Positions 1 to 64,000 of a DNA stretch of 64,000 bases are shown here, piece after piece; the first letter of the stretch is position 1; each line of letters begins with the position of its first letter. The position numbers and the translations under genes were made by a program. The stretch spans positions 44,460 through 108,459 of the forward strand of contig NMRA01000892.1 in NCBI GenBank assembly GCA_002633005.1, written 5' to 3'. The DNA comes from Phoronis australis (lineage: Eukaryota > Animalia > Phoronida). The notes beneath the pieces were generated by a model that was not told where the DNA came from, did not search any database, and saw only the letters and a program-made list of their open reading frames with translations.

Positions 1-675
1 GGAGAGGGTTCCGCTGGAGACAAATCTCTCTCCATCCTAGCTACATGTGCATGCACGCCCCTCAGGATGTACACAGAAGTCTGTGCCCTGACTGTTGCAT
101 ACTTCTGTATGCATTATACATTGTTCCTTGCTAGTTCAAAGGCTTAGTTTTGGCCCTTATATTTACCGTCAATCTTAATGAAGTTGTACTTAACAAAATA
201 GACACAGTGTATAATGTTCGTCTTATTCACTGTCTTAATCATGTTTTCTGAACTTAGAATAAGTAATGCTTGTGTAAAAATCTTTCACCTCCATTTTGGT
301 TGAGATGATGACTTCTGATGAGAGACTGATCATCTTTCACATATATCATTGTGATCATCGTTCACGGACTCTTTTTGGTCAGTAACAAGAATTCGTATAA
401 ATTACTAGGGCTGATGAAAAAATTTAAATCTTATATTACACCTTTCGTTAATATTGATTCTTATCGACATCTGATAACATGCCTTACCACTCTTAGAAAC
501 ATTAAAAATTAACCTACTTTAAAGAATTGTTTGTAATAAATTTAATCACCCGTAATTGATTGTGTACACCTGTCGTGCACGCGCAGATATAGTGCCTGTG
601 TACCCTTGGCCTGCACGCTCAGATATACATATATATAGTGGGACAAAGGGACATATCCCACTACTGCTCCACCGA

Positions 676-1489: not shown

Positions 1490-1849
1490 GAACTGTGTGC
1501 AAATTTAGTGACACATTTCAAATTTCCTGGTTGCTGATACTTTTTTATGCATAATTTATAAAAAGTTCCACATCTAGAGTGCGAAATTGTGTTTCCACGA
1601 CATCATTTAACGTTAAATTTTACCACGCCGTCAGCAATTCAATATAACCTTTATCTTGGTGCAATTTCACGCAAGTCGTATTTGTAGGTTGATTCGATTT
1701 TACCACCTTTCAATAGTTGAACAAAAGTTGATAAACCGATATCAAGACCGAAGTTTCCACTGGTGAACGAAAAGCGAAAAGTTGAATGTCTGTTTGGCCA
1801 AAGTTCACCCGCTAAGTCATAAAATGGTTATTGCCCACCGAGGACACTG

Positions 1850-2070
1850 TCCGTGACGCATAATCCGAATTGGTCGTCTATTTATGCTAGGCGACCACTT
1901 TGCCGACCCAAATGCCGACCCAAGTGCCGACCACAGAGGCGACTTAGCAGACGGCTCCTAGCAGACCATTGTTGCCAGACTGCTGGTCGCCGGCTAGACG
2001 GCCGTTCATCGACCGGTCGCCGACCAATTTCCGACCGGTCGGATAAAAATTCCTTATGTGTGCCTGTAGG
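1850..2070. repeat. Terminal fragment of EnSpm/CACTA-like element (GCCGACC subterminal repeats, ...TGTGTGCCTGTAGG end)
   Basis: Multiple gccgacc/ccgaccggtc motifs and the same terminus as 27895-28073 and (inverted) 20913-21015. Confidence 0.6.
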
Positions 2071-10145: not shown

Positions 10146-11267
10146 AGAGTCAACTATCTGCAAAATTGTTTCCACGTTTACAAATTGTCACTGAATACAA
10201 CTGCACTTTGTGTTATAGCGTGGATCTTGTTAAAGTAGCATTATCACCTAATTCCTGATATACATTAGAACACGTACTTAAGATCATGCAAATACATCTC
10301 TGAAGTTCCAGTTCCGTCATTGAAAGCGATTTTCTTTGTTCATATTCAGGGAGGAAGCACTTTTCTGATGCGAGAATTTACATACTGGCATGTAATTACA
10401 TATACTAAAATCATGGATTAAATGGATTTGACTGATTCCTTCAGCAGAATGATTCCACGAACTTGATTTACTTAACTTGTATTTTGCGATTTCAGCTTTA
10501 CCTATAGCACTGCGCGGGATGTTGCAGTGCTCTTATCTGATTTAACTGTGGACACATTTTGGGCAAGTGCAGTTGAAATTCTCCTCAATTAGCAATTATT
10601 TTTGTAAAAATTTCTATACACAGATTTCGTGTTTTCTCCAGTGTCATATACCCCAATTTATAGGAATTTCGAAAAATAGGAGGTCGTGCTCTATGTCATT
10701 TTACCATAGATTATAGACAACGGATTCGGAACTCCGGCATTTTCTTACGTACTATCCAAGAGGCGCCGCCACTCCCCTGACCTTTCTGGTACAGTTTCCA
10801 GTTAGTGTATTTTGACGAAAAACATTTACATATACATTACTGTCCAGTACAACGAAAAAAAATTTAATTTTGGCATTGAAACGCTGTTCAAAGTCTTTCA
10901 ATAGTAGAAGTGTTGGTATTGTGAGTACTTTTGGCAATGCTACTGGTAATTAATTACAAAATTCAAGATTCGTTGCCGACTGATTATGTCGTCTGCTTGC
11001 TCAATAGCATAGCAGCATAGTTATCGGACAGTTTGTGATTTATGCTTCACATAGGCCTACTGAGAAAACTACGAAAGCATGTTTGTGCACAAATTCCAAG
11101 GAGTACCTGTGAATGCAAAAGATACTTATATAACGTTTTTGGTTTAGAAAAATATCAATTATGTTCGAATTGAAAAATGCACTTCTGCAACGATTTGACT
11201 ATTTTAACCTTTGCATGTTTATAATTCAACATTCTCAAGTGAGCAGTTCTTCTGGGAAGTGTTGAGT

Positions 11268-11283
11268 GGCCCTTAAAAGGGCC
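11268..11283 (-). promoter_or_regulatory. Histone 3'-UTR stem-loop (distal), copy 1
   Basis: Minus strand reads CCAAC-GGCCCT-TTTA-AGGGCC-ACTCA: 6-bp stem, 4-nt UUUN loop, canonical flanks. An AGAAGAACTG purine tract follows about 10 nt downstream. Confidence 0.85.
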
Positions 11284-11308
11284 GTTGGTTGTAGGTATAG
11301 CGTGAAAT

Positions 11309-11324
11309 GGTTCTTAAAAGAACC
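11309..11324 (-). promoter_or_regulatory. Histone 3'-UTR stem-loop (proximal), copy 1
   Basis: Minus strand CAAT-GGTTCT-TTTA-AGAACC-ATTTC, a perfect 6-bp stem 10 nt after the TGA stop at 11337-11335. Confidence 0.65.
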
Positions 11325-11334
11325 ATTGAGTAAT

Positions 11335-11428
11335 TCAACATGAATAACACAGTATACCATGCTCACTCAAGTACTGAAGGTCCTTTTCGTTCAAGTTTTC
11401 ATCTGGGAAGGCTGGATGAAAACAGAGG
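11335..11428 (-). pseudogene. Truncated 3' end of PHD-finger-like ORF (copy 1)
   Basis: Translates LCFHPAFPDENLNEKDLQYLSEHGILCYSC*, homologous to copy 2. Confidence 0.55.
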
Positions 11429-12732
11429 TTATGATTGTTGATCATTAAATGAATGAATGACGTGAATGAATGACATCCAGATAATGTATCTTAACATGGG
11501 CTTCACAAAACAGCTTTAAAATACTTTTCATTCAATAGCCACTTTCAAGACAAATTGGTGTAAATGACAGCAGTCGATGTTCTGTATTGTTTTGTGTTTA
11601 ACTGAAACATGACCAGAGGTCGGGTCTTTATATTGTCAAGCTCCTGCGAAATTGCAACGTTTAATTCACAATTGGGGTGCATGTACGCATCCAGGGGGCT
11701 CGGAGGGGGTCTCGAATGAGATCCCATATTAGACAAAGTGGACAAATAGCTCCGACAGCAGAGAAACAAACAAATCCGAAAATGTAGAACACGAGACAGA
11801 ATGACACCACTAAAATGGCAGGAACTGTCAAAAATCAGCGAATGCACAAATCACAGCTCTGAACGTACTCCGTGAATCTTAGAAAAAAATGCACATTCTG
11901 AAAATTTTGAGCCACCCATTTTTTAGGCTCGGTGCGCGCATGAGATGGATTGGGCAAGATTTCATGTCAAAATATGACAATGCTTCGGTCTCAATTGGAA
12001 TAACAGCTGATTCTACAAATGGATTGTAATACCACATAAAGGTAGAGATCCACTCGTAGCCATTACTAATTCTAGTAGGGCACGCCACAAACACACCGAA
12101 TTGTGTCATAATGAAAACTCTTAACATTGACTTAGCTTGCGGATGCTATTCTCATAAAGTTATTTTATTTGATTTCTTATCAAAAATAAATATTAAACGA
12201 ATAACTAATGCAGGAAGCGTGCAACTGTACTTTATTATAGAAATGTTTTGGAATAAAATAAAGTCAACGTTGCCGCACCCCAGCTCTGTCGACTGTGATT
12301 CCGGGGCCCTGTCTGCAATCTCAGGCTCATACTCATACTCGAGATTTCATACTCAAAATTGTGCTCACTGGTGTCGTACTCAAAAAGCGTATTTAATGTC
12401 GCATTTTGAGTAGACTCTAAACGTAATCAAATCTGAGAATCGTACACGAGTTGCTATGGAACTCTTCAGTTAAGATGTGAAATGCAAAACCACAAAAAAT
12501 CGTGCTGATTCAGCGCTCCCTATATTCGCATCGACTACCATAGCAACTGCGTTATCGTCAGCTCTCGTTACAATTGACCTATCGCCAGGATTATGACGGA
12601 CGGCTTAATTGACCAATCAGAACGCAGCATTCTTGGCACACTTTCGTCTGCGTTTCCAAGCCGCCATTTTACCCGACAAACCAAACGCAGTCAGTAAAAT
12701 TTACTTTAGTCTATAGCTCAAGAAACTGTTGA

Positions 12733-13949: not shown

Positions 13950-16544
13950 AATTCCAGACATTAACTTTACTTAGACACAGCCCTAGACCTACCAGAGCTA
14001 ACTGTTTGCCCAGGACGAGATGAGTGTGTACCTGAGCTATGAACCTGAATTTGTTTATCAAAATATTTCGTTAAAAGATTATAAAAGCTATCGAGTCGAT
14101 CTACATGTAGTCAGAGACTATAGTGCATGTCTTGTCTGTAATCTATGACCTACTTTACTCCAGGAGTCCCCCGCAGTTGTAACCTACTTTTCATTTGGCG
14201 AAATTTAGCAGACGACAGAATAAAAATATCGGTGAATCTTCACTGACTTTATTCGAAAGATCATGAAATCTATGGAATCGTACAGATAATTCGACTTTAA
14301 GGTACATACCCAGCTTTACATGAACATATCAGTGGCATTGTCATTTGTCAGGTGAAGGTGGCCCCGACGCCGAAGGATTCTTCGGGTTTTCGCTGGCTCC
14401 TCGAGCACTTATTTTTTCATCGTCACCCTTACAAATTCCCATAACATGAACGTACGATTCACTGTTGAAAAGCATCGCCTCTTGTCTCTGTCGACGTGTT
14501 TTCAAATAGTGCAAAAAGACTCATCGATTCCACCAGGAACGTCGTTTAGAGACAGTGTATTTGCCTCTGACATCTCGTTCGAATGTCGGGTATCACATGA
14601 CTTTTCGCATAGGGGCGGAGCTTGCGATAGGTCAATTACAAGAGCATGACGTGGAATGCTGAGTGTTCTGTAACTGTTATTCATTTGTACAGTTTCAATA
14701 CAGTATTCTTCTACCATTTCTTGATACAGCAGATTTGCCACTTATTAAGCTTTACTTGTTGAGTTCCTTATCTCCCTCCGGAAAATGTCTCAGTAAATTT
14801 GAGATAGCTTATCAAAACGTCAGTCGGCCGGAGCGGAGCAGCCAAAATCTCATTGTCTGATTTAGTCAGGGGCATTCTCTCCTACACTTGACTCACTTAC
14901 TGCTAAAATAGGCATGGTCACACCAACGATTGACGGCATATTGAAATTATATTTTTCATTAATGCAGTGGTGGGCCGGTGACCTCAGTGCGAGAGTCGGG
15001 TACAATGTCACAGGCCTGCAACCAACATTTTAAGGAGGGTTCGAATTGCACATTTTCTTTGGCGGGAGGTCGAATGTCAAAAGTTTGTACCTTAATTGCC
15101 AGCGGTGGTGTTCTTTAGTAAACCGGTTGTCCACCGTGACGTCAGCCCGAAACTCCAGTCGACATTTTTGGGCCGCAGTTGTTTGGTTACTGGTCAACCA
15201 CTGTTCTCTCCTGCATAGCACCCATTGCCGTGTAGGTCTACGCTGATGTCAAAACTTACTGTATCTTTATTCACCGGGATGTATCAAGTTAGCTGACATT
15301 TGGCGTGTGATTGGGTTATAAACACTAAATGTAGATCAGGCACTCAGAGTTCATCAGTGAACGGGACGAGACGTCCACTCATATTCACAAATCGGCAAAC
15401 AAAAACGGGGATTGAGGAATTATCGATGACTCATCTATGATGTAAAATCTGACCGGAAAGCAAATTCTTTTTCAACTTCCCTCGTCTTTAGGAAACCGTA
15501 AAAACCATTGCACACGCACTTCAATCACGGCAATCCCTACCCCGCAGCTGATTTTGACCCTTGTAATGACTCGTCGACATGGGATTAGCATTCACCAGTT
15601 GGCAGGAATCGTTGTAAGAAGGACTTTAAAAATTGACGGCAATGAAGTGTGGTGAGTATGAACTGTGAGACAGTTTGAGTATGATTCGAGTCTGAGTACG
15701 GAGATTGGAGACTGGGGCCAGGTAAACTATAAACACATGTCTTCAATTGTACAGATTTTTAAAATTATAATTTTCATAAGATACTGAGAATGCGTAACAT
15801 ATTTTTGTAGTCTTAATAATTGAAAACGGCAGCTAGATTTAATAATCTCTTCCGTATAGAAACTCTGACGCTGTTGCTGGGCATACATACTATCCCAGAA
15901 TGCAATAGAGAGGAGCTGGTGTGGGGCATGCGCATTGAGATTTGCACATTCGTTAATGTGTATTGCTTCAAGATCCAGTACCTAGAATCCCATGTACAGT
16001 ATTCTGTACCCCGCAAGTCTCTGTTTATTACTTGGCGGAACTCTTCGAATTCCATGCCGGCTTTCTGAAATGGTAAAGCGCACCAATTTCCATGTCCCAC
16101 ACCTCGTCAAACGTTAAGTCCCTGTCCTCCCCCCGGAAAAATTTTAACGTTGACACTCAGTCCGGGCTCACAGACAGACCTCGAGACAGGGCTACTATGT
16201 CGAGTTCAGATATTTGCTCGGTTTACACGAACAAAGAAGTCGTGTATTTTATGGGTTTTAAGCGTTATCAAAAGGACCGAAAATGTTGTTCAAATTCCTG
16301 TCAAAAAATTCACAGCTCACACTTTGTCCGGCGCTAAATTGCACATAAAATATGAAAATGATCTTTATCCCATATAGGCCATAGTCCCAGCTCTCCTATC
16401 TTTCACCTCCGTGGCCAATTTCTGGGGGGCAATGGGAACTTTGCATTAAACCCATCTACAGATGTTTAAAAGTAAATTTCAAAAAAAATCCCAAGAATAC
16501 ACGTGCACGCTTAGTTAGAATTTTAATTTAAAAAATGGAAAAAT

Positions 16545-16765: not shown

Positions 16766-18091
16766 TCTTGATGAAGGTTTCTTGTTCAGGTGGGACCTCA
16801 GGCAAATCTGATAAAATTACAAATGACGCCGTGACCCATAAGCTTGGTCTGAATAAATATCACATTCCCTTCCGCCAACTTGTTTTGACTACGTATGGGA
16901 AAAACTTTCAAATTCATATTTTGTCAGTTTCATTAACAATTTAAAACATCCACATCCAATCGCTAAATAAATATCTTTTACTCTTTCATCGATCGATAAC
17001 ATTTATTCTCAGACTTACCGTTTTTGCGTTATTTACCTTTGAATTTCAAAAATTGCAAAGTTTGAAACTTTTCGAAATTTGTACGGGATTTTGTAAATCT
17101 ATAGTTTTAGATAACGTTTAGAACAGGCTTTCAGGAAATGTTTTTCATTTTTCGCTATGACGCTTACTTTTTGAATTTTTGAACACTTTCTGGTAACGCT
17201 GTTCCTTTGTTGACTGATTTTGTAGCACTGTTGTTCGTGTACCTTCTATTGAACAAGAATAGCCTAATAGGCAATTACGTAGCCCTGGATGCTGAAAATC
17301 TGTCGCGCTTTGCTCGAGTTTCTCTTACCGGGTGCCATTTTCAGGAAGTTACGTGAAATCATGCATGTTGACGAATAAAAAGTCCACGGGTCACAAATAT
17401 TACAAATTTTACCTGATACAGTGTACCTTCCCATGCTATTTTGCAAGTGTCACGTGCTTCACTAGCGTTTGCCTAAATCACGTGACCCGGTTGACATACT
17501 TCGTGGTTATCGCGCGCCGTGAAAAAGTTAACGGCAACCAAAAAAGTGGAACTAGTTGGAATTCTTCATCAAAGCATAGATTATAGACAACAGACTCGCA
17601 GCTCCGGCATTTTCTTACGTTCTAGCCTGACCTTTCTGGTACAGTTTCCGGTTAGTGTATTTTGACGAGAAATATTTGCGTCTACATTACTGACCATTAC
17701 AACGAAAAAAAATCTTAATTTTGGCATTGAAACGCTGTTCAAAGTATTTCAATAGTATAAGTGTTGATATCATGAGTACTTTTTCCAATGCTATTGGTAA
17801 TTAATTACAAAATTCAAACTTCGGTGCCGACTGATTATGTCGTCTGCTTGCCCAATAGCATAGCTGCATAGTTATGGGACAGTTTGTGATTTATGGTTCG
17901 CATAGGCTTACTGAGAAAACTACGAAAGTATGTTTGTGCACAATTTCCAAGGAGTACCAGTTTTTGGTTTAGAAAAATGTCATTTTTTTCGAATTAAAGA
18001 ATGCGCCTCTGCAACGATTTGACTATTTCAACCTTTGCATGTTTATAATTCAACATTCTCAAGTGAGCAGTTCTTCTGAGAATTGTTGAGT

Positions 18092-18107
18092 GGCCCTTAA
18101 AAGGGCC
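18092..18107 (-). promoter_or_regulatory. Histone 3'-UTR stem-loop (distal), copy 2
   Basis: Identical CCAAC-GGCCCTTTTAAGGGCC-ACTCA and downstream AGAAGAACTG. The proximal stem-loop at 18133-18148 is partly broken (CAAC-GGTTCTTTTAAGACAC). Confidence 0.85.
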
Positions 18108-18158
18108 GTTGGTTGTAGGTATAGCGTGAAATGTGTCTTAAAAGAACCGTTGAATAAT

Positions 18159-18350
18159 TCAACATAAATCACACAGTATACCATGCTCACTCAAGTGCTG
18201 AAAGTCCTCTTCATTCAAGTTTTCATCTGGGAAGGTTGGATGAAAACAGAGGAGATGACAATATCGATGACAGTTTTAACACCTTATATCAATGTTACCG
18301 TTCTCCAACGTTATCACGAACCCTGCCTCTTTCAGTTCTTGTGCCTGGAT
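18159..18350 (-). pseudogene. PHD-finger-like protein pseudogene (C-terminal part); decayed coding-like sequence may extend to ~18570
   Basis: One frame reads IQAQELKEAGFVITLENGNIDIRC*NCHRYCHLLCFHPTFPDENLNEEDFQHLSEHGILCDLC*, i.e. C-x2-C-x4-H-x2-C...C-x2-C with one premature TAA. The first Cys pair is probably frameshifted near 18380-18395. Confidence 0.65.
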
Positions 18351-18744
18351 TCAGAAGTAACCCTGAACCATAGGGGAAAAGACATACAACGAAAACGCAA
18401 TCAAATTTTGAAAATCCTCGCTTTAGTACGATTGCCGGTGTTGCTGTCGCCAGACTAATATTCCTCCCCAACATCAATGTCGAAAATCGACGTTACAAGT
18501 GATGGAAACTTGTGTCCTTTGTTTCTAACTTTTAACCAATTTTAAGAAAGGGGTGTACTGATTTTGTCTAACGTTGATAGAGCATAACTTTTGGTTTTTA
18601 CAGTGCATTAATTGTGTTGAATGCATTCATATTAGGTGGCTTCATTCAGTTGAAGAGAAAATAAATTAAATGTAACACAATAAAGTTTTGAAAATAAATA
18701 GAACAGCAACAGGACTCCCTAAAAATCGAGCTGTTTTCGAAAAC

Positions 18745-18792
18745 TTTGCGCCATTGGTGATCTGATTGGTTCATGCATTTACGGCGGGAAAA
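18745..18792 (-). promoter_or_regulatory. Candidate G1/S promoter cluster: E2F site TTTTCCCGCC, two CCAAT boxes, E2F-like GGCGCAAA
   Basis: Plus strand tttgcgcc-attgg-tgatctg-attgg-...-ggcgggaaaa, upstream of the minus-strand PHD ORF. Confidence 0.4.
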
Positions 18793-21700
18793 TAATAGAC
18801 CAAGTATCGTGCACGTGTGCACTGTTGCAACACTTTGTATTTCATTCTTATTTGGGCCAATCTGTTGATACAGTAAATTTCCTCATTTATGCCCGTCCTG
18901 ATTTGACGGCAACTTGAGCTTGTTGGGTTCTATCATATATTGGGTTGGCATTGGGACCTACATGATGCTTACTCGAATGGGCTTCATTTTACCAAGTATT
19001 TCAAATTGAGGTGAAGTAAAATAAGCAAAGTGGGTGACTATCATCACCAGAATTTCATCATTAGTATCTTTTGCCGGGTGCTTAAATTTTCTGAGACCAG
19101 GGATTGTAAGATTTGTAAGGTAGAAGTGTTTCGCTGGATTTCCAGGTCTGTGGCGTTAATTAAAAACCATACCTTTGTTTAAATCAGGAGCTGCACGACA
19201 CACATTTATTAGACGTACGCAGGCATTGCACTGATCGATGATCACTTATCCTTTATGCACGGGACCCTTTTGTTACGTTAGGAGTGGAATTGGCTCCTTA
19301 TGTACCCTACAGGTGGCATAGGACTTTACAAAACTGGTTGAAGAATTTTGTTTTCGTCATAAACTTTCGTTTGAATGGCTTAAGTTTGGAAATGTTAGGA
19401 CTTAAGGCGGAAACTTAAAAACCATTTGTCCGCTTACAAAAATTTAACACTGAAGAATAAAAACAACCTTCACACCCCTCTGGTGTTCCTGTTCCATGTT
19501 TTCAAAGAAGTTGGTTGCGTTTTCATAGACTACAGTCGAGAGATTTTGTGCGGCATATATTGTGTAAGATGCTGTTGAATTGCGAGATAGAGTTTGACTG
19601 GTCCAGGTGGTTACATGTATTTCTGAAGTATTAATGTAATCTTTATTTATGTTAAAGGTTTTACCAGCGTTCTATTTATTTGTACACAAATGTGAATTTG
19701 TTGAAATCGCTGATCCAAATCCTGGCCAAATTTGTGCATTTTGTTGAGACCAGCCGTCTGATCAGGGCCACCGGAGAGTAATTTGGTTAATTCGGTCACT
19801 AGACTATGACTGAGTCACTACCATTGGAAGAAATTTAGCGGACAATTTTCGTCAAAAAGTTTACCAGATACTTTTCATCAAAACGGAGAAAAAAATGGAT
19901 TTGTGAGGACAGGATTAAGTAGTAGAGCCTCTTAAAAATATTCATCTTCGAAGTGCCTTGAACAAATGTATAAAGTCTTATTGCTGAAACAACTGCCATT
20001 CACGTTGACACAAGAACTAAGCTTCCCACAGCCGAATATGGTGTCTTCGGATGGTATGGAAGCTAATTCCTTTGCATTTCGCGTGTGTGACCGGTTGTTC
20101 GGCCACACAGTAGCCGACCATGATTAGCAGACGACGTACTTGCCGGAAATTGCACTAGAAAATTTAGCCAGGTGTCGCCAGTGAATAATGACGTAAGATC
20201 ACAGATTTCGTCCATTGAAAGTATACGGAGTTGGCGGTCCATGTACTATAGTGTATGATCAAAGTCAACTTAATTCTCACAACTAAGCTTCATCGAAGAT
20301 ATGTGTAGAAGAACAAAGTACCAATGATAAACTTAAGCGCTTTTTTAAATGATACTAAGTGTGGATTGTATTTTTGACGTGAAAACTCAAAATCGGTGGC
20401 CGGATTTGGCCTACCGCCCGTTTAAAATACATGTAACGAAATGCGTATAGAAAGCGAATGGAAGTATTGCAGTCCCTAAATGGCCAACCGAGGGCTACGT
20501 GTTGCCTAATAGCCTATTTCTCATTGACTTCTGACATCTTCGTCCGTCGTGTGAATGTGATCATCGTGTTCACCACTACCACCACCACCACCACCCCGAC
20601 CGCCATCATCCCTATTAAGGCCTTTTCAGTTAATTTTGCCCAAATGTCCTCCTCGGAGCACTTTCATTCTATTTGTTGTGATAGTGTGGGTTGTGGTCTG
20701 CAACCACTTCAGATAGAGAGTGAAGCTGATTCATATGTGACATTGGAAACACATGTATAACCAGGATAAATAGGTAGGAAATTTTAGTGCCAAGACAGCA
20801 CCAAAATACCCCTCCAACACATTAAAGCTCATTAACATCAACTGAGTGTGCAATCACTATTTGGTAATTCATTTTTTGTTTTGTCAGTGCCTGTTCCATA
20901 AGATTATATCACCTACAGCACACATCACAAATTTTTGGCCGACCGGTCGGAAATTGGTCGACGACCGGCCGTCGACCAGTCGTCTAGCCGACCAGCAACG
21001 GTCGGCTAGGAGGTGGCTCTTGATCATCACTTCATCACGCTGTATATTGCGCTTTACCACAGATAATTATTGTTTATTTCTGTATAATTTCTTAATATGT
21101 TTGTACAGCAATAGAACCCAAGTTTATTTTGGGAACAACATAAACACTGGTTTGAACATAGCGCCGATATTAAGATCATGGGCGTATGAAAACGGAAGAA
21201 TGTGATCGGTTTATAGTGTCATCCATCATCAATCATCATTCTGAATTTGTTGCCACTTTCGCAGTAAAATATCGTTTCGAAGCTAGAGCCTTCCCATCTA
21301 GCCAGCTAGCTGTATGAAGACTGTTTTCAAAATACAGCAAGGTGCCTCTGTTTATTGAGCTCGAACAGACCTCGAAATTTCACACAGCCCGGATAGTTAC
21401 GCTCGTTACCTTGTCGTGAAGCTTGTATTAGCATGAGCTCAAGACCGGCGGGTGTGAATGCAAAATCTGGAAGTCAATTGACATTCAACATGCCCGTTAC
21501 GGCCGTTTAAGCGAACAACATCAGACGTCATCTTCTTGCGTAATTCTCTGCCTTTTGTAACGAAAAAACGTATGTCGTCGTTTTGAAAAGGGTTCATTCG
21601 TGACACGCGCCACTTCCAAATTGTTTTCGACATCTCCCATTCGATGATGACATCATCTCACCAAAATTTGTTCTAAAATTTGGTTTACTGATATCAAAAT

Positions 21701-23867
21701 TCCTAAAACATATAATGAAGTGAAACCAATTCTGCCTTGATCATTTGTTGTGACGTTTACGCAACCTCGAGGGAGAACGTTTGATTGAAGAATCTGGGAA
21801 AAAGAAACTGGCTAATAGGTGACGCAAAAGATCACACCATAACTTTAGCAGCAGAATAATTGTAGAAAACCAATTTTTGCAACGCTGGTAAATAAGTTAG
21901 ATTACTCGGTCAGTTTTTACCCACAACGGCGCAAATTTGTATATTTAATTTTCTAAACAGCTTATCACCAAGGCTAAAGCCTTCCGAGCCCTTTGGCGTA
22001 AGAACACAATTCTTGCCGTTTCACGTATACTCCAAGGGGTAAAACTTTAAAAATAATATTTTCGGGGTAACTTTATACATGTACGCTTAATCCTAAAAAA
22101 AGTAGTCTGTGTTTTCATGTAGAGCGTAAAATGATTAATCCAGTGATTCATAAAGAACACTCTCGCAAACGAAAACGCACAAAATTCTCAGTTCTATTAC
22201 ACAGGTTAAAAAACAACTTCTATAAGTTTATTGCATCGATTCTAGTGATCACCAGGGAAATTCAAAACTCTTAAGGGAGCGCAATTTCAAACCTTTGGCA
22301 TGAATCAGTGTTGCAAAAATGGATTCAGACCGACGTTTATTCATCAGCAATGTAGACACAAGAGTTACAGATACTGACTGCGTTTGTTAACGTCTTGTGG
22401 CAATGATAAAAATAATTGTTTCTACCATGATTGATTACAAGTTTTTCTCTGATGAGGTATGATGCAATATGCATGCCTAATATGCAGATCGGCAGTTGCA
22501 AAAATATCTACTGGGTTTGATGAATCCGTTTGTTATGAACCAAGCCTGCAAAAGTATGATTACTAATTGTACATTCGAAGCACACCTCATTAAAAAAAAA
22601 CATACACATGCTTGATGATCCTAGGAGTACAGTACCTCTATTTACAGGCGTGAATGAAGATACATAGTTGTTAAGCCATAGAGGATAATCAATAATCAGC
22701 CTTACATAATATCACACCGAGACATCTACACCAGGCATATACAAAGGATACAGTATTTCAAAAGAAGCCACAACTACTCATTTTTCATAGTCATAACTAC
22801 TCATTTTTCATAGTATTATTAAATCACGAACACCTAGATCTATTTAAGAAGTTACATAGTACGATGCTACACCACCTGCTCTCCCATATTTATGGAAGTC
22901 CTAAGTGGAAACATTTAACTACATATATTATTTTCTATGCAAGATTAAAACCAAGCAAAACGTGTTTACTTAACTCTCCAGGACCAAAAATAAATATCTC
23001 AAAATCAACACTTTTACACAAGCAAGAATTAAAACAATCCAATACATTGGGATTGTTTTCACACAGAAGACCAAAATACAAATCAAGACCAAAATTCCTC
23101 ACGTCAAGACTGAAACTTTATCACATCAGCACCTATAATTTATCACGTGAGGACAAATAATTCTTCACTTCAGGATCAAAATAAAATACGACCAACTGAA
23201 AATTTAATAAGTCAGGTTCAAAAATTTACCATGTCAGTAACTTATCATGCCAGGACACCACGTCACCATCCCCAAGCATTGATCCTTTAAAGTGATAATG
23301 TCCGTACTACACGTATAAACAAGGGCTAAGTATTCAACCTCTCCCCGACGACAGACATATTATCTAGGAAATGCGGTTGAATTTCTTTCGTCTAATGCAC
23401 GTTTTGCAATAGATGCCAATGTAAAGGTACACACTGGATTGTCATCATTGCATAATGGGTGATCACGTAGTCTCCAGGCATGAAAACAATTCTCTCCTGG
23501 TGTGATGAGTTTTCTGACGCAATAAATCCTGGTTGCCAATTGTTTTCGATTCTACAGGGATTTCAATTCCTGAATAGAAAATGTGTGTTCTGGATTTTTC
23601 GGCTTCAGTCTTCCATTCAGCGAACTAGTGCACAGCACAGTGTTTTTAATATCCCGTGGCGGATCCACTGCAACGAATCACTTCTGGTACAACCTTCAGT
23701 ATGTAGTCACCTATTTCACAAAAGCACCATCTTCCCGCGCCATCTTTAAATACTGATCGAAAACGAGACACACTGATAAAACCTCGTGAGAGATCATCAG
23801 CTGGCCATGGTGTACTGTGCAGTGCCTGAACGTACCAATTCCAGTAATAACTCGTCGCTACCATTCC

Positions 23868-26027
23868 CAGGGATATACTTAGCCACTCGCCCAGTCGCCA
23901 ATGCAGAGTAAAAATGGTGCTGGGCGAGTAGAAGTTGACTTGCCGGTTGCCCGGTGGCGAGCGAATTTCAGAGCGCAAAACCACTGTATATCGTTTCCCA
24001 GATGAATATGAATAATTTTCCTCATCCTTGTGCTGTTTTTATCATGAATTTAAGGTTCAGTTTGGTCATCGTGTCGATGCTCCGGCAGTAAACAACATCG
24101 GCGCAGTGCGACACTACCGATTCAGTACATGTCACCCGTTACGCGATTCGTCAAAAAACACAGTGTGTGGTCGTGCACAAAGAATTTGTGGACTAGTCCG
24201 AAACGAAGAAAAGGGGAGAAAGGTGGAAGACCGGTCCATGTGCTCATAGCAAATGAAATACTATATTTCTTGAAACTGATTTCTTATTGTAATGTGCATG
24301 TACAATGTCATTTTAGACAAAATTATTTTTATAACATGCGTCCTAATAAGCGCCATGCCCCTATCAGCGTCCCAACTCGTTTTCAGACATCGCTAAAACA
24401 AGCGCCCAGTCCATGAATGTGTATATATTTGTGCGAAAAAATGCCTTACCTCACAGTTCTAAAATTCTACAGTAATGTATTCATTTTAACAATAATACGC
24501 GACAGTCTTGAAAAATCATTGTGCGCGGAATTTCTAGTAGACCACGAGCCTCGCCGCTATGTCGGTATTTAGCCGTGGCTGTACACTTCAAACCGTTTCG
24601 CAGTGCTTCAAAAAGAACGCAAAAGATTTGCTGATCTTGCGAGGAAAGTGTATATGTTCTGGCCCTTCAGAACAGACGCAGCGTACTGGTAACGGGATTG
24701 GCCGTATTGTATCTTTCCCGTACAGATCTTCTCCCACAACAGGGCCCGGTCTCTAATCTTTGTACTCGAAACGAACTCGAAACTATTTTTGGCAATTTCT
24801 CTGCTCCTTTTGTGCGAACTTAAGATAATCGGTTATCAGAATGTGCTCGAATACAATATACACTGTAGTTTATGCATAGGAGTTCCTAGTTCAAGTTTGC
24901 CCTTGAAGACCCTTATATTCGTGCTACAAACTCGAGTAAAAACTCGAACTTTCGAGTTCAAACTCAAACTTATTGCTTTAATATTGGGTTTACAAACTGT
25001 GAACTAAGGGCAATAAATTATCTACGTAAGTTATTGTGTACTCGAGTATAGAATAATAGACGCTTATCTTGATTTCGCCCAAAAGTAGAGTAGAAAATGC
25101 CAAACCTAATTTCGAGTTCCATTTCGAGTAAAAAGATTGGAGACCGGGCTCAGATTGCTTTGTACACGTCAAATTACAAAAACCGCGAATCGAAACTTGG
25201 TCAAGAAACGCGCTAGGGCCTACAAATAATATGTGGGCCTGCTCAATGAGATAAATATAACTACATACACACCTGTACAGCTCATTGGGCCTGTTACTCT
25301 GGCAAATGAACACTGATAACACTCACGCGCTCGCTCACACGGTGCACACCTGTTGACTCACTTCAATACAAACGTCACGTAACAACATATGTGTTCGTCC
25401 AGATTTTTCACGTTGCGGGGTGCGATCTAGCGCAGATTTTTACTTAATCTGCTTTTAATCCCGACTCCGAGTCCACCGGAACTTAGAATCTTAGGAAAGG
25501 CTATTTGGAAAACTTAAGGAGGATTTCAGGTAATTTGAGTCGAAACTATTTTTACTCAAGAATTCAAGTTGTCCTCTCGACGATTGCGAAGCAGCGACGC
25601 ATCACTGAGTCGGCAAGTTTTCGCACATTTTTTTAAAAAGATCGTAATTTAACAACAGAGTGGTGATAGCAATGCACCACAGTTTTGTAGACAGTCTGTC
25701 ATAGGTTACACATACGTCACAGCGCGTAAATTTGATGAATCCTAGCTTCCGAGATTTCACCCGTTTCGGAGACCGGGTTTTAACCGCCTTAGGCTACAAA
25801 AAGGCGTCACCCTGGGCGCTTATAAGGGCGAATACGGTAGCCTTAATAGATGGTGACATCAGTGCACGAAACGATGGTTTTTATATAAACTAGCAGCAAG
25901 TTTGTGGTGACTGGCTCCAACGACCGGGTGACTGAACTTCGGGCTGGGCGAGTAGATTTTCTGGCTCCGGCACTCGCCCAGCTGGCGAGCAGGGTTTTTC
26001 AAGACTAAAAGCCTGGGTATATCCCTG
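23868..26027. mobile_element. hAT-like non-autonomous element, TIR CAGGGATATAC
   Basis: cagggatatact at 23868 and gggtatatccctg ending at 26027; ctcgcccag/ctgggcgag subterminal motifs at both ends. Confidence 0.7.
24743..25150. mobile_element. Harbinger-type MITE with CAG 3-bp TSD
   Basis: TIR ggcccggtctctaatctttgtactcgaaa / tttcgagtaaaaagattggagaccgggct, flanked by CAG on both sides. Confidence 0.75.
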
Positions 26028-29984: not shown

Positions 29985-30970
29985 TATTCACCTATTTCAC
30001 GAAAGCGCCATTTTCCCGCGCCATCTTTAAATACTGATCGAAAACGAGGCACACTGATAAAACCTCGTGAGTGATCATCAGCTGGCCATGGTGTACTGTG
30101 CAGTGCCTGAACGTACCAATTCCAGTAATATCTCGTCGGTATCCTTCCCAGGGATATACTTAGCCATTCGCCCAGTCACCAATGCTAGTAAAAATGGTGC
30201 TGGGCGAGTAGAAATTGACTTGCCGGTCGCCCGGTGGCGAGCGAATTTCAGAGCGCAAAAGCACAATATGTCGTTTCCCAGATGATTATGAATAATTTTC
30301 CTCCTCCTTGTGCTGTTTTTATCATGAATTTTAGGTTCAGTTTGGTCATCGTGTCGATGCTCCGGCAGTAAACAACATCGGCGCAGTGCGACCCTACCGA
30401 TTCAGTACATTTCACCCGTTACGCGATTCGTCAAAAAAACACAGTGTGTGGTCGTGCACAAAGAATTTGTGGACTAGTCCGAAACGAAGAAAAGGGGAGA
30501 AAGGTGGAAGACCGGTCCATGTGCTCATAGCAAATAAAATACCATACTTCTTGGAACTGATTTCTTATTGTAAAGTGCAATGTCATTTTAGCCAAAATTA
30601 TTTTGATAACATTCGTCCTAATAAGCGCCCATGCCCCTATAAGCGTCCCCACTCGTTTTCAGACTTCGCTAAAATAAGCGCCCAGTCCATGAATGTGTAT
30701 ATATCAGTGCGAAAAATGTCTTACCTGACAGTTCTAAAATTCTACAGTAAATGTATTCAATTTATCAATAATATCCGACAGTTCTGAAAAATCATTGTGC
30801 GCGTAATTTCTAGTAGACCACGAGCCTCGCCGCTATGTCGGTATTTAGCCGTGGCTGTACACTTCAAACCATTCCGCAGTGCTTCAAAAAGAACGCAAAA
30901 GATTTGCTGATCTTGCGGGGAGGAAAGTGTCACACTACATGGTCTGGCCCTGATCAGAACAGACGCAGCG
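29985..30970 (+). repeat. ~1-kb diverged duplicate of 23706-24683 (composite transposon segment), cut at a single-N join
   Basis: Co-linear direct repeat with scattered substitutions and indels; ends exactly at N 30971. Confidence 0.85.
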
Positions 30971-32069: not shown

Positions 32070-32640
32070 TCATGGGGAGACAATAAAATAATCTACAACC
32101 GCTCTTCCTCTATGACTTATTGAGGTGAAGTTTTCTTTACTTATCTCTTTCCTACCATTGACTATGCAAGTTTTAGAGCCGAACAAAAAGTCAATCAAAC
32201 TTCTACCATGACTATTTACAACTTTATCTTTATCAATTACGACTCGTTTATTTACCTGACAATCGACATCTGGAATGTAATCATTCAAGTTACCCACTCT
32301 CAAGTTAAAATCTCCACATATAACAATGTCATCTGCTATATCTGCATGTAAATATAACTGGCATAATAGATGGATATAGAAACTATACGCATCACAACCA
32401 CTTGAAGAGTTCTCAGATAGTAAATAGCAACAAAATACAATTATACAATAGTCTGAGCGTATATGAGTTAGTCTTAAAGCTAATATACCATCTCACGACT
32501 TGTCAACAGTATCAATTTTAAATGTTTTAAACAAATCATTTTTAACAAATATTCCCACCCCATCCGAACCTCTTGGGACCCGCTTGTTTATAAGCTGCCT
32601 ATTGTGTCCGTACCAAAAATAACCGGGCAAAGTAATCGTG
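32070..32640 (-). mobile_element. Non-LTR retrotransposon (RTE-X-like) apurinic endonuclease fragment
   Basis: DIVICGDFNLRVGNLNDY...D..VNSHGRSLIDFL....CIVNGR...FTSISHRGRAVVDYFIVS are APE-domain motifs. Confidence 0.85.
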
Positions 32641-33285
32641 GGGTAAAGGCTGCATAATGCTTTTTCAGTCAGACCTGATCGGAAGAAGTTTTGTAAGGAA
32701 ACTTCTGTCTGTGTATGGTTTTCAGGTGTATGGATTAATCAGGGTATGGTAAACCAAGTGTATTTCCTGACAGTTTTTTCTCAACGTGTCAACGATTGTT
32801 ATTTGCAAGGCTGGCAATCTGATATCGAATGTAACGCAAAAATGACTTACTATATGGGGTATAAAACAATGTATTGTCTTGAGAATTATCTAGCAATAGT
32901 TAGTATCCACGTGTTTTATCCAGTCTCTGCGATGTTCAAATCATTCGTTACTAGTGGAAAGAGGTCGCCACACTAATATTCCCTATGAAAATAGGTCGTG
33001 TGAGTTATGTAATTGGGGATGTGTAGAGGACCAATACCACCTTGTGTTAGATTGCAGTGCGTACCTAGACCTTCGGGTTAAGTACTTAAAAGATCGTTTT
33101 TGTTATTCTCCCACAACATCTAAATTTGAATCTATCATGAGAACTCCGGATATCCTACTTCTAAAATTCGTTCATCGTGCTCTCGAGCGTCACAATTTAT
33201 TATCCAGTTTTTAACGCACCTGCCAATGTTTTGTCTTGGCTTTGTGCCTATGGCCATACATGTATGTATATATTTCAATAAAAAT
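32640..33285 (+). mobile_element. 3' end of RTE-X-like LINE ORF2 with AATAAA tail
   Basis: VWINQG...FSQRVNDCYLQGW...ERGRHTNIPYENRSCELCNWGCVEDQYHLVLDCSAYLDLRVKY zinc-knuckle C-terminus; AATAAA near 33277. Confidence 0.85.
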
Positions 33286-33555: not shown

Positions 33556-34413
33556 CTGGGGATGGCAAAAAGAAGTAAAGTTTGAACTATAATTAAGTTA
33601 ATTACCCACTGCAAATTCAGTTGACATTGCGAGTGAATATTGAAATAGCTAACATGGTTAAGACATGTATAGGTAATATTGACCGAAAACAAATTTACAA
33701 AGAATAATTAACCGGACTTTTTGATTTTCACTCGCCACAGTTAAATCGGCTTTTTCCCAGCTTCGGTAAATCGGCTTTATTAGAATTTAGGATCACGAGT
33801 TCTCGTAAACAGCTTGGTGGATTTCGCTGAAACTTTCCAACTTAATATTTATTCATCAATCTCAAAAACATCTAGTTTTTGCGTAATGTAACAAAAACGA
33901 ATATGACTTCTATTTTTAACAAAAATACATAACGTTTTTCCAGTTGATTTGTCAAAGAAACCAAAAGAAAAGACCAATCGAAAATTCCCAACGGAGTTTT
34001 TGAGGCAGCAGGTGAAGTTTTTTGGTGAATACTATATCTAACTCAAATGCAAAATACGAGTAAACATATTCCGTTTACAGCACCTTAATAAATTTACATC
34101 AAAATTAAATATAATATTTGCCCAAACTCGAGCGTAAGTTTTATCATTTTTAATGAAAAAGACATCGGTTAAGATAAAAATTAGGAGAGTTTTTGATTTT
34201 AAAATGCACTCTAACAGTTAAGCTTCCAATCAACGGTTTGTGTCAGATGCAGGTGACATGGGGCTGTCTTCACATGTCCAACATCATTCTCATTTGCATC
34301 GTCTGATTCAATAAAAAGTTACAAAAGAAATGGTAACTCAAAACGTCGTTACTAGCGAAATGGTTTATCTGTGTTTAAGTCGAAATAAGCGTTAGAATTA
34401 CTGTTGAACTCAC

Positions 34414-34692
34414 TTAAACATTGTATTTCCAAATGTTGCATTGGCTTGTTTTGCCGTAGATCATCGATTCCAATGCCATCACTGTCCCACTTCTTGCTTT
34501 TCATCCAGCATCTCTTCGTGTCCCGGTTATAATCGGCAGACGAACATGGCTTGCTCTGGTAACACAACAGGGCGCAGTGTGCAGGACAGTTCGCATTAGA
34601 TACGACATGTTCATCTACATTGTGGCCGCGTAGCTCGTGTTCAAAAAGTTTGTAGATTTGAAATTTATAGGGATGCTCACAGACCTGTGTTC
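34414..34692 (-). CDS. Secreted PAN/apple-domain protein, exon 2 (279 bp, phase 1-1)
   Basis: ttttttcag acceptor and gtgagt donor; TQVCEHPYKFQIYKLFEHELRGHNVDEHVVSNANCPAHCALLCYQSKPCSSADYNRDTKRCWMKSKKWDSDG...QHLEIQCL has the PAN C-x3-C-x5-C...Y...C pattern. Confidence 0.85.
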
Positions 34693-36427
34693 CTGAAAAA
34701 ACAAAGCATGTCTGGTGACCATGCGCTGTTTCAATCTTGAAGACTCAGAAGAAGTGGTCATGAATAAGCCCTTTTCATATGATTAAGGATAGGGTTTCGT
34801 AATACTAGTTTTACAACGGCGAGTAGACCTAATCAAAAGATTTTTTGGCAGAAGACATGTTTATACAACTTTTATCCACCTGAAGTTGGGTATCAAAGTT
34901 ATGGGGTTTGAGTACAGTACCAGAGCTCCTTTTCGAGAAAAGCTGTATCACACAAGTCCTCGCGAAATGTAGCCATGTATTAAAAGGGAAGCGCGTGATC
35001 ACGGTAGTTTCACTGGTGAATTTCTCGCTTCTGTGGAACGTACATGTAACTCGTATAATTTGTGTAATAACATGGAAGGGAAAGGAGTATTTTATTTTTT
35101 TATTTTTCTCCGAAATGCATTGAGCATTAGATACATGTTGTCGTTCTATAATAACTAAGAATCGGCACCGGAGTGGTAAAAACCTACTATAAAAACTGAA
35201 ACGTGTATGAAACAAAACATGATGCCACAATGCAATGAGGCAAAAATAAGATAAATGATGCTGGTGAGATATTGGTACATATGGAAACAAAAACAAACAT
35301 TTGTCTAGATCAACCAGTTACCAAAAAAATCATTGACATTTCTGGGTCCGGCGCGACTGTGCACCGCAGTAGCTCGGAGGCCATTTAACTTGGTTGCCGT
35401 AAGCTCAGCGAGTACAGAGGGGTCAACGTTCTGACAATTAATATATTAGATGCATCGAACTGAGTGATTTTACAATTGCAGCTGACAGGGGGTGCACACC
35501 AGAAATCAACCCTTGCAATCTGTTGAGTTTAGGCAGTATTTGTTGAAAAAATCATTGACACGTATTCATGAACTTCTTGGATTTGTCCGGATAACTTTCA
35601 TCAGCCGTACCAGGAGATGAGGATAGATTGTTATTACGAAAGCGTTGTTGATGAAGGGGGACTTATTTGTAGGAAACTCAATCCGACTGTCAGAGGTACA
35701 TGTATGAATTTTTGATGACCGTGCACAGTGAACCTGTATAATAGGTTAAAGTGCAAAGATATAAATTTGTGATCTTCGGGATGCACACTTAACTCAGGCC
35801 ACTGCGGGAATGAACAAGAAGTCATGATGAATAGCTAATTTCTGAAAATTTCTTGGAGGAAGCCCCTAACACCCGATCCCCGTATGATGCCCCGCTTCAA
35901 TTATTGCTCTCCAGGATGCCTCATGTCATGTTTCTGCGTCCATGGTTCAGTTCAGGAATATATTGCCTACAGATTCCATACCGTGGTTTACGGATATCAA
36001 AAGTGTTGTACCAAGAGTGATAATGATATTGGGTTCATCGTTTTGAGTTTAGATGCTTAATATACATCTACGAGAATCGACTGTTACCTAATCTAGTAAG
36101 AAATCGTTTCTTCAATGAGCTTAGACGCAAGCTGAACTTTTGGGCGGTTCTATCATCCGAATCCTAAAATGCAACAACTAATTTTTACCACGTAACGTGC
36201 TCAGGTCGAAAAGGTATCATTCTCGTGAAATTTTGTTGAAATACCGGTACTCACGTTTCTGATGGCTTTCTCCCCAAACAAGAAACTCCGCATGCCTATG
36301 ATTGTTATGGGGGTTGCGTGGTGCAGGGTAAGAAATTGATTAGGGGTCAACTTGATTAGTTGGTACTCCCCTCCCCGCCTTCCTACGAGCCTGTTCAGTC
36401 CAAAAACCCCACTGCCCCCGAAGTTAC

Positions 36428-43138: not shown

Positions 43139-43670
43139 ATGTCCATTTGACTGTATTTAGCTTGCTTGACCAGTGTCCATTACAGCACTGTGAGACTCCT
43201 GAGTGAGAACTGAAGCCAGTTCACCCATGTTAGTCCATTCAATGTTTATTTGACTGTACTTTGCTGGCTTGACCAGTGTCCATTACAGCACTCTGTGACT
43301 CCTGAGTGAGAACTACTGAAGCCAGTTCACCCTTGCTAATCCATTCAATGTACATTAGACGATTCTTAGTTTGCTTGACCAGTGTCCATTACGCCAAACT
43401 CCGAAGTGACAGCTAAAGCCAGTTCATCAACATCAAACAGTTCCATGTCCATTTGATTGTATATTGTTTGCTTGACCAGAGTCCATTACAGTGGACTCCT
43501 GAGTGAGAGTTGAAGCCAGTTTACCCACATTAATCCATTCAATGTCCACTATGACTGAACTTAGCTTGACCAGTGTCCATTACAGCGGACTCCTCAGTCG
43601 AGAGCTGAAGCCAGTTCACTCATATCTACCCGTTCAATGTCCATTTGAGTGTGTCTTGTTTGCTGAATTT
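43139..43670. repeat. Diverged tandem repeat, ~95-106-bp unit x ~5.5, overlapping the ZNF511 stop codon and 3' UTR
   Basis: Anchor cttgaccag at ~43165, 43268, 43374, 43470 and 43565. Confidence 0.9.
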
Positions 43671-44150: not shown

Positions 44151-44310
44151 TATTTGTGAATAATTGCACTTCAGAAGTGTCCTATTTGTGAATAATTGCA
44201 CTTCAGAAGTGTCCTATTTGTGAATAATTGCACTTCAGAAGTGTCCTATTTGTGAATAATTGCACTTCAGAAGTGTCCTATTTGTGAATAATTGCACTTC
44301 AGAAGTGTCT
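44151..44310. repeat. 32-bp minisatellite x5 (tatttgtgaataattgcacttcagaagtgtcc)
   Basis: Near-perfect tandem copies in a ZNF511 intron. Confidence 0.95.
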
Positions 44311-44573
44311 TATTCAAACCTCGTTATCTATGTAGAATCTAAAGTAGCAGAGAATGTTAATTACTAGTGATATATCGGAAATTAAAAATAAAGTACACGA
44401 TAATATATCAAAACTTTTTGACACAAAGACCGAAATAAACCGAAAGATGGGTTACCACAAACGGCCGGGGTTGTCTTCAGTGTGTTATGTTAGACCCATA
44501 TAGGGCAAACTGAACCCACCTCGGGCACCACTGACCACACTTCAAACAACTCTTACTAATGGTAATGGCTTAC

Positions 44574-63776: not shown

Positions 63777-64000
63777 CTCAATTTTCTTCATCACAATCAT
63801 CACAATCATCGCTATATAGTAACCAGGCTCATCATCAATTTTCTTCATCACAATCGTCACAATCATCGCTATATAGTAACCAGGCTCATCATCAATTTTC
63901 TTCATCACAATCGTCACAATCATCGCTATATAGTAACCAGGCTCATCATCAATTTTCTTCATCACAATCGTCACAATCATCGCTATATAGTAACCAGGCT
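63777..64000. repeat. 57-bp minisatellite, ~4 copies, truncated by window end
   Basis: caattttcttcatcacaatcgtcacaatcatcgctatatagtaaccaggctcatcat repeated. Confidence 0.95.

Follow-up and report, generated by a model that had tools for sequence, protein, structure and literature searches.

A transposon-borne PHD-like gene followed by histone-type 3' end signals in Phoronis australis

Results

The element and its copies

The window, that is the whole stretch of 64,000 nucleotides of Phoronis australis contig NMRA01000892.1 that was analysed, contains an interspersed element of 2,683 bp (17575..20257, minus strand). It carries a decayed THAP-like frame near its left end and a broken PHD-like gene with histone-type hairpins towards its right end. 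Its extent is given by the termini, a 7-bp duplication and loose ends. The left terminus (20246..20257, minus strand), beginning with CATAC, and the right terminus (17575..17586, plus strand), beginning with CATAG, form a short imperfect inverted repeat with 10/12 matching bases. These ends are backed by DNA and RNA runs and read CA...TG, the end letters of the P superfamily. The target-site duplication CTTTGAT was detected on both sides (left copy 20258..20264, right copy 17568..17574, both minus strand) and has the length of 7-8 bp known for this superfamily. On that strand, the window has a single occurrence of CTTTGAT followed by CA, at 20264. Among 104 candidate right ends in the window, one had both a matching 7-bp repeat and a left end, searched as CATA[GC], within 0.3-15 kb.

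Loose ends leading into unrelated flanks were found at 20257 for 81 DNA contigs (agreement 0.41) and 161 RNA reads (0.43), and at 17575 for 227, 196 and 312 RNA reads of three runs; some of these contigs and reads stem from a more abundant short family with the same ends. The majority of the sister-copy flanks showed GT at the start and AC at the end. A second, 5'-truncated copy lies at 10705..11434 (minus strand). It comprises the last third of the PHD-like gene, both hairpins, the purine tract and the right terminus; its left end was not found in the window. A sharp boundary at 17575/10705, starting with CATAG, is common to both window copies, which differ in 57 of 683 aligned bases. The original prediction of a mobile, repeated transposon-like unit was thereby confirmed in its essentials: the proposed check for element ends and a duplication yielded the CATA termini and CTTTGAT, the flanks are interspersed, and the repeat is present as two window copies of 85.6% identity and as thousands of matching contigs in the DNA runs. 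The unit itself is larger than had been assumed, reaching from 17575 to 20257. Summed contig depth was 3,500-46,000 over 17860-20134, while most of the single contigs listed have about 30-50. A hundred or more copies are thereby suggested, the summed depth itself being no copy number. In a second organism, relatives were detected at low depth in 29/30 element bins on 38 contigs.

Depth jumped at 20044-20316, where the last bin (to 20316) also overlaps a neighbouring repeat. The ends of the element are shared with a far commoner short family (depth up to about 90,000 in run X4). This family has loose ends at 20103, 20150 and 17616 and shares the end segments 20044-20316 and 17575-17616; it is probably a MITE that relies on the same transposase for its movement. 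Inside the element, a terminus-like sequence (19524..19536, plus strand) is inverted to the left end with 11/13 matches. The part 19524-20257 could be an older, THAP-only element of 734 bp; no matching duplication flanks it. A 36-bp remnant with both end types back to back, without matching duplication, lies at 14112-14147.

Further repeats and frames were observed elsewhere in the window. Another interspersed repeat is present at 23704-24683 and 29985-30970 (92.7% identity over 994 bp), and tandem arrays with units of 97, 32 and 57 bp lie at 43139-43664, 44151-44314 and 63778-64000. At 32070-33214, fragments similar to a LINE endonuclease (Exo_endo_phos_2, E 5e-4, below cut-off) were seen, along with a C-terminal Cys motif of LINE type. 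A PAN/apple domain frame at 34352-34741 (minus strand; Pfam PAN_1, E 3e-6) is probably a host exon.

The THAP-like frame and the class of the element

The THAP-like DNA-binding frame (19830..20121, minus strand) begins 136 nt inside the left end. It is decayed and frameshifted, its motifs being split over two frames, and reached E 0.028 and 15.6 bits with Pfam THAP, below the cut-off of 23.9. No PDB sequence match was obtained for it. The adjoining middle region (18883..19829, minus strand), maybe a decayed continuation of this frame, is covered throughout by sister copies. No significant Pfam or NCBIfam family was detected there, and no P-type DDE transposase core was recognised between the THAP-like frame and the PHD-like gene in this decayed copy. 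A search for a partner transposase had been proposed with the original prediction; homologue searches among proteins of 391-1246 aa gave none, with 0/707 candidates for the THAP-like region and 0/1,473 for the middle region.

Because of the 7-bp duplication, the terminal repeats and the THAP-like frame, the element was filed under the P superfamily. Going by ends and THAP only, it is likely a non-autonomous, Galileo/1360-like DNA transposon. A Polinton/Maverick gene was rejected; a size of 2.7 kb, CA ends and a 7-bp duplication do not fit the features of those elements. A LINE-type PHD ORF1 was ruled out by the terminal repeats and the lack of a reverse transcriptase match.

The PHD-like gene

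The PHD-like (C4HC3) gene of about 105 aa (18159..18478, minus strand) was delimited by tblastn and with the family profile. It is broken and apparently intronless. The frame ...IRC-stop-NCHRYCHLLCF...GILCDLC-stop, on which the original prediction was built, was found as quoted, with its final stop at 18161-18159. Its status as a pseudogene was equally evident: the start codon is gone, there are in-frame stops and a frameshift near 18436, and the first Cys pair is eroded. The relative P0007 matched in tblastn with two pieces of 79% and 60% identity. It aligns from residue 1 at 18478, in two frames and without an intron-sized gap; minus-strand intron ends were absent among the joints listed for DNA contigs and RNA reads. 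The family profile A2 matched the gene with E 2.5e-27, Pfam PHD with E 0.22. The in-frame stop at 18276-18278 was missing in sister-copy RNA reads of three runs (74/76, 48/48 and 12/12). Eight of the nine differences between the window copies inside the gene fall on codon positions 1-2; hence, these two copies decay neutrally.

Upstream, about 290 nt before the PHD start, a promoter-like cluster of an E2F-type site and two CCAAT boxes was noticed (18753..18791, minus strand). Two further CCAAT boxes, reversed, lie at 18861 and 18540. The combination of four CCAAT boxes and an E2F site in 431 nt was matched by 0/607 overlapping background windows (singly 9/607 and 26/607), the motifs having been chosen after the fact.

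The protein family

Search of 1.84 billion representatives with the X-read frame (phmmer) gave eight matches with E <= 0.001, seven of which align as one family. The profile search resulted in 14 matches. P0012, a repetitive protein of 1,091 aa, was removed as a chance match, and alignment A2 omits P0009, P0010, P0011, P0013, P0019 and near-duplicates. Complete members have 107-119 aa and pairwise identities of 49-88% (median 60%). The spacing C-x2-C-x34-C-x4-C-x4-H-x2-C-x24-C-x2-C was present in 11/12 relatives tested, the twelfth being truncated. Since this spacing is kept at a median identity of 60%, the protein family is under selection. With these intact relatives the predicted PHD-like, non-histone product holds: the C4HC3 zinc-ligand pattern that defines PHD fingers is complete in 11/12 relatives and, except for the first Cys pair, present in the window copy. 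The N-terminus of the family bears an acidic SG(E/D)SDTES motif.

Most homologues are single records. One cluster consists of five members, each on a different large contig, and one protein is present on nine contigs; such multi-contig members fit the expectation for a mobile gene. The zebra mussel member is an annotated gene, the hypothetical protein KAH3730070.1 (DPMN_056048). P0002, P0006 and P0007 form the clade of the window gene, with about 30-35% identity to the main clade. P0002 and P0006 end at the last Cys, whereas proteins of the main clade are about nine residues longer. No named host orthologue was obtained in the homologue searches, and no loci of the family were found in the viral or prokaryote collections. 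A weak viral match (L004) was dismissed, as it sits between terminase-like phage frames.

One of eight proteins scanned, P0008, passed Pfam PF22908 (PHD_NSD) with 27.7 bits (cut-off 23.9). Its structure was predicted with pLDDT 72. Fold comparison of the model gave a best Z of 3.8 (rmsd 2.6 over 52 residues) with mostly PHD fingers in the top rows; the best Foldseek E was 0.084, and the SLX1 RING was also among the weak matches. The predicted fold is thus weakly nearest to PHD fingers. The C4HC3 ligand pattern is common to PHD fingers (Pfam PF00628, PF22908) and the family. In contrast to these, the family protein is stand-alone with about 108 aa, has a first loop of 34 residues and an acidic N-terminus, and contains Tyr at the position at which many H3K4me3-reading PHD fingers have Trp.

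Histone-type hairpins and purine tract

The signals start 11 nt after the stop of this conserved non-histone gene and have the same sense. The distal hairpin GGCCCT-TTTA-AGGGCC (18107-18092, minus strand; 18087..18112 with 5-nt flanks) lies 51 nt past the PHD stop, in agreement with the roughly 50 nt predicted. Rfam Histone3 (RF00032) matched it at 18068-18112 (minus strand) with 34.2 bits and E 4e-6, barely above the gathering score of 34. The 5'-truncated copy was matched at 11242-11288 with 36.0 bits. Both have the 6-bp stem, 4-nt loop and A/C-rich flanks of histone hairpins. These two sites were the only Rfam matches in the window; as no other Histone3 match was found inside the element, the THAP-like frame is without a hairpin end. 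The 23-nt hairpin pattern occurred twice in the window and not once in 100 shuffles, by which a chance hairpin was ruled out. The 26-nt hairpin shows 0 differences between the two window copies, whereas its surroundings differ by about 8%; this contrast does not reach significance (p about 0.1).

The purine tract AGAAGAAC (18070..18077, minus strand) lies in register with histone downstream elements, as had been proposed. Its core GAAGA begins at +16 from the stem; the controls on metagenome contig L001 gave +16 for H2B and +15 for H4. This contig is one of three metagenome loci with the exact 24-mer of the hairpin. The 24-mer identical to that of the window lies 3' of a real H2B gene there, and an H4 end on this contig has a near-identical hairpin behind it.

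A proximal hairpin was expected about 10 nt past the stop. It starts after 11 nt (18132..18147, minus strand); in this copy it is damaged, with 4/6 stem pairs. The second window copy has both hairpins in perfect form, at 11324-11309 (proximal) and 11283-11268, and the sister copies likewise have two perfect tandem hairpins. At 18134 the stem was restored in 43/45 (X7) and 55/55 (X8) RNA reads. No purine tract of its own was found downstream of the proximal hairpin. AATAAA and ATTAAA were absent between PHD stop and element end, a weak result with about one expected by chance. In the 3' third of the gene plus hairpins, summed contig depth was 3-5x higher than in the remaining part of the gene. 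This excess and the truncated second copy point to many hairpin-bearing copies without the whole gene. A segment of 109-111 nt just past the purine tract (17930-18040) is absent from many sister copies in DNA and RNA.

The predicted lack of histone-fold coding sequence nearby was corroborated. No histone remnant was detected by Pfam in six frames of 18800-19600 and 17575-18077 or in the three minus frames of 18162-20299, and tblastn of the L001 H2B, the sole histone query, against the window gave a best E of 2.0. A histone pseudogene or orphon was therefore ruled out, no histone sequence having been found. The product is PHD-like, and the window gene is not a histone gene. Its 3' end may work like that of one.

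Two of the three metagenome contigs with the 24-mer, L002 and L003, have the hairpin behind non-histone frames; we treat them as leads, not as support. In L002 a hairpin of 37.4 bits with tract (412-456, minus strand) accompanies a basic, low-complexity non-histone frame without Pfam family. L003 contains non-histone frames of 193 and 109 aa (609-1240 and 1552-1938, plus strand) with no Pfam family at cut-off. Behind each of them lie a histone hairpin and a purine tract, and only the second hairpin passed the Rfam cut-off. The hairpin pattern was not found in viral contigs.

RNA reads

Three raw RNA runs (X7, X8, X9) with the same species label were used, about a fifth of each being read. The reads cover 30/30 element bins in both directions and derive from sister copies; in X7, 122 of 1,918 are at least 95% alike to the window copy. 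Across the predicted cut the depth did not fall (18134 vs. 18083: X7 45/65, X8 55/64, X9 4/7), and no pile of read ends was listed there for the three runs, whose library selection is unspecified. Non-polyadenylated messages may be lost from such runs. Hence, passive read-through is compatible with the reads, and a message without poly(A) tail is neither demonstrated nor ruled out by them. The depth dip at 17970-18036 is the 109-111-nt deletion, which occurs likewise in DNA contigs. Towards the gene, depth in X7 and X8 increases by a factor of two to three from 18573-18639 onwards, which hints weakly at a transcription start near 18570.

Discussion

The element shares a 7-bp duplication, short imperfect terminal repeats and many defective copies with the P-superfamily members Galileo and 1360/Hoppel and with P-mobilised, non-autonomous elements such as BuT5, as described in excerpts of PMC4168063 and PMC3698922. 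Duplications of 8 bp are given for P elements and of 7 bp for Galileo and 1360 (PMC3698922, in part). The THAP-like frame at the left end is found in Galileo/1360-type elements as well, and the Galileo target site GTANTAC (PMC4168063, in part) is like the GT...AC flanks of the sister copies. In contrast to the P superfamily, the window copy is without recognised transposase core. A PHD-like gene with histone-type 3' signals is not described for members of the superfamily in the available text of PMC4168063 and PMC3698922. In the open literature consulted no PHD gene in P-type elements was found; the element family may be catalogued in Repbase.

Harbinger-like elements generate target duplications of 2-3 bp. 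An accessory second gene, as seen here, is reported for Harbinger (Myb-like protein) and ISL2EU (THAP transposase and YqaJ exonuclease), the latter also combining a THAP-type frame with a second gene in one element (PMC9179366, excerpts). The window element differs from these two-gene transposons in its PHD-like second gene and 7-bp duplication, and a histone-type end is not described for them in the part of PMC9179366 consulted.

With the ends of replication-dependent histone mRNAs, as outlined in parts of PMC5054213, PMC13525598 and PMC4841609, the window gene shares the tract register, the lack of a visible intron and the lack of a poly(A) signal. The hairpin is identical over 24 nt to that of the H2B gene in L001. 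In contrast to histone genes, however, the window gene is non-histone, transposon-borne and followed by two tandem hairpins. According to the sections of PMC5054213 at hand, histone mRNAs seem to be the only ones processed via SLBP/U7, and U7 snRNA has a conserved UCUUU box. No transposon gene with a histone-type 3' end was found in the openly accessible literature, with subscription papers and Repbase outside the search.

Well-formed, real histone-type signals are present on a real, transposon-borne family of non-histone genes. On balance, we lean slightly towards an accessory chromatin-reader gene, the mRNA of which active elements would produce via the SLBP/U7 route. The window holds a dead copy of the 2.7-kb interspersed element, which would have been mobilised in trans by a transposase of THAP type encoded at another genomic site. 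Active elements would transcribe a short intronless PHD message from the upstream cell-cycle-type E2F/CCAAT cluster. SLBP would bind one or both hairpins. U7, whose UCUUU box could pair with GAAGA including one G-U pair, would pair with the tract and guide a cut after 18087 without polyadenylation. The mRNA would be short-lived and linked to replication or the egg. The protein would bind chromatin (histone tails) and aid expression or insertion of the element in dividing cells, which are those in which a cut-and-paste element gains copies. For the SLBP/U7 mechanism, only the anatomy is shown. As to the central claim of the original prediction, that the mRNA borrows this pathway, the canonical hairpin and downstream element are present as predicted; the RNA reads, which run through the site, are the main result against it.

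A passenger origin of the hairpins, the main rival, is rather unlikely in our estimation. The lineage would have gained a histone-gene 3' segment behind the PHD gene by gap repair or template switch, and the hairpins would have been amplified without being used. P0002 and P0006, which stop about nine residues short at the last Cys, a pattern expected after replacement of the 3' end, are consistent with this, as are the RNA reads passing through the hairpin, the 3-5x depth over the 3' third and hairpins, and truncated copies that keep hairpins without the whole gene. However, no histone coding remnant was found, and the captured segment would have had to insert in the sense orientation no more than 11 nt past the stop, and to supply two different perfect hairpins with a tract in register. 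The E2F/CCAAT-type cluster upstream also argues against it. The cargo could instead be the whole gene, together with its promoter and 3' end: histone-type processing would then belong to a captured host gene (Pack-type) and be useless to the transposon, which we consider distinctly improbable. No transposase core was recognised in the middle of the element, the terminus-like sequence at 19524 could be a trace of a smaller and older element with THAP only, and most homologues are single records, one of them annotated in the zebra mussel. But other homologues are multi-copy, the searches gave no host orthologue with a name, and a related, nearly whole 2.7-kb layout exists in a second organism (29/30 bins, 38 contigs, low depth).

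It is highly improbable that the hairpins act as terminator or decoy, ending or destabilising read-through transcripts or binding SLBP, with the finger perhaps a RING variant. Two tandem hairpins, the first without downstream tract, their retention in truncated copies and the weak SLX1-RING matches would suit such a role, whereas read-through RNA continues past the hairpin and the top fold rows are mostly PHD fingers.

Starting from the preferred reading, an accessory gene served by SLBP and U7, a wider one can be put forward only tentatively and with considerable doubt. It assumes a widespread invertebrate P-type lineage with a stand-alone PHD reader of chromatin. The gene for this reader would resemble replication-dependent histone genes in having a cell-cycle promoter, tandem SLBP hairpins and a U7 site and in lacking an intron. 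Activity of the element would thereby be tied to S phase or egg, and the message, a protein-coding, non-histone client of SLBP/U7, would escape surveys based on poly(A).

The finding brings a second gene, of an unnamed PHD-like accessory family, to P-type elements, which have been described with one gene each. If the proposed route is true, a transposon gene would break the rule that SLBP/U7 messages are those of histones only, and the absence of such genes from poly(A) data would be explained. A cut-and-paste element would then have a means of making an accessory protein at the time of replication or in early embryos.
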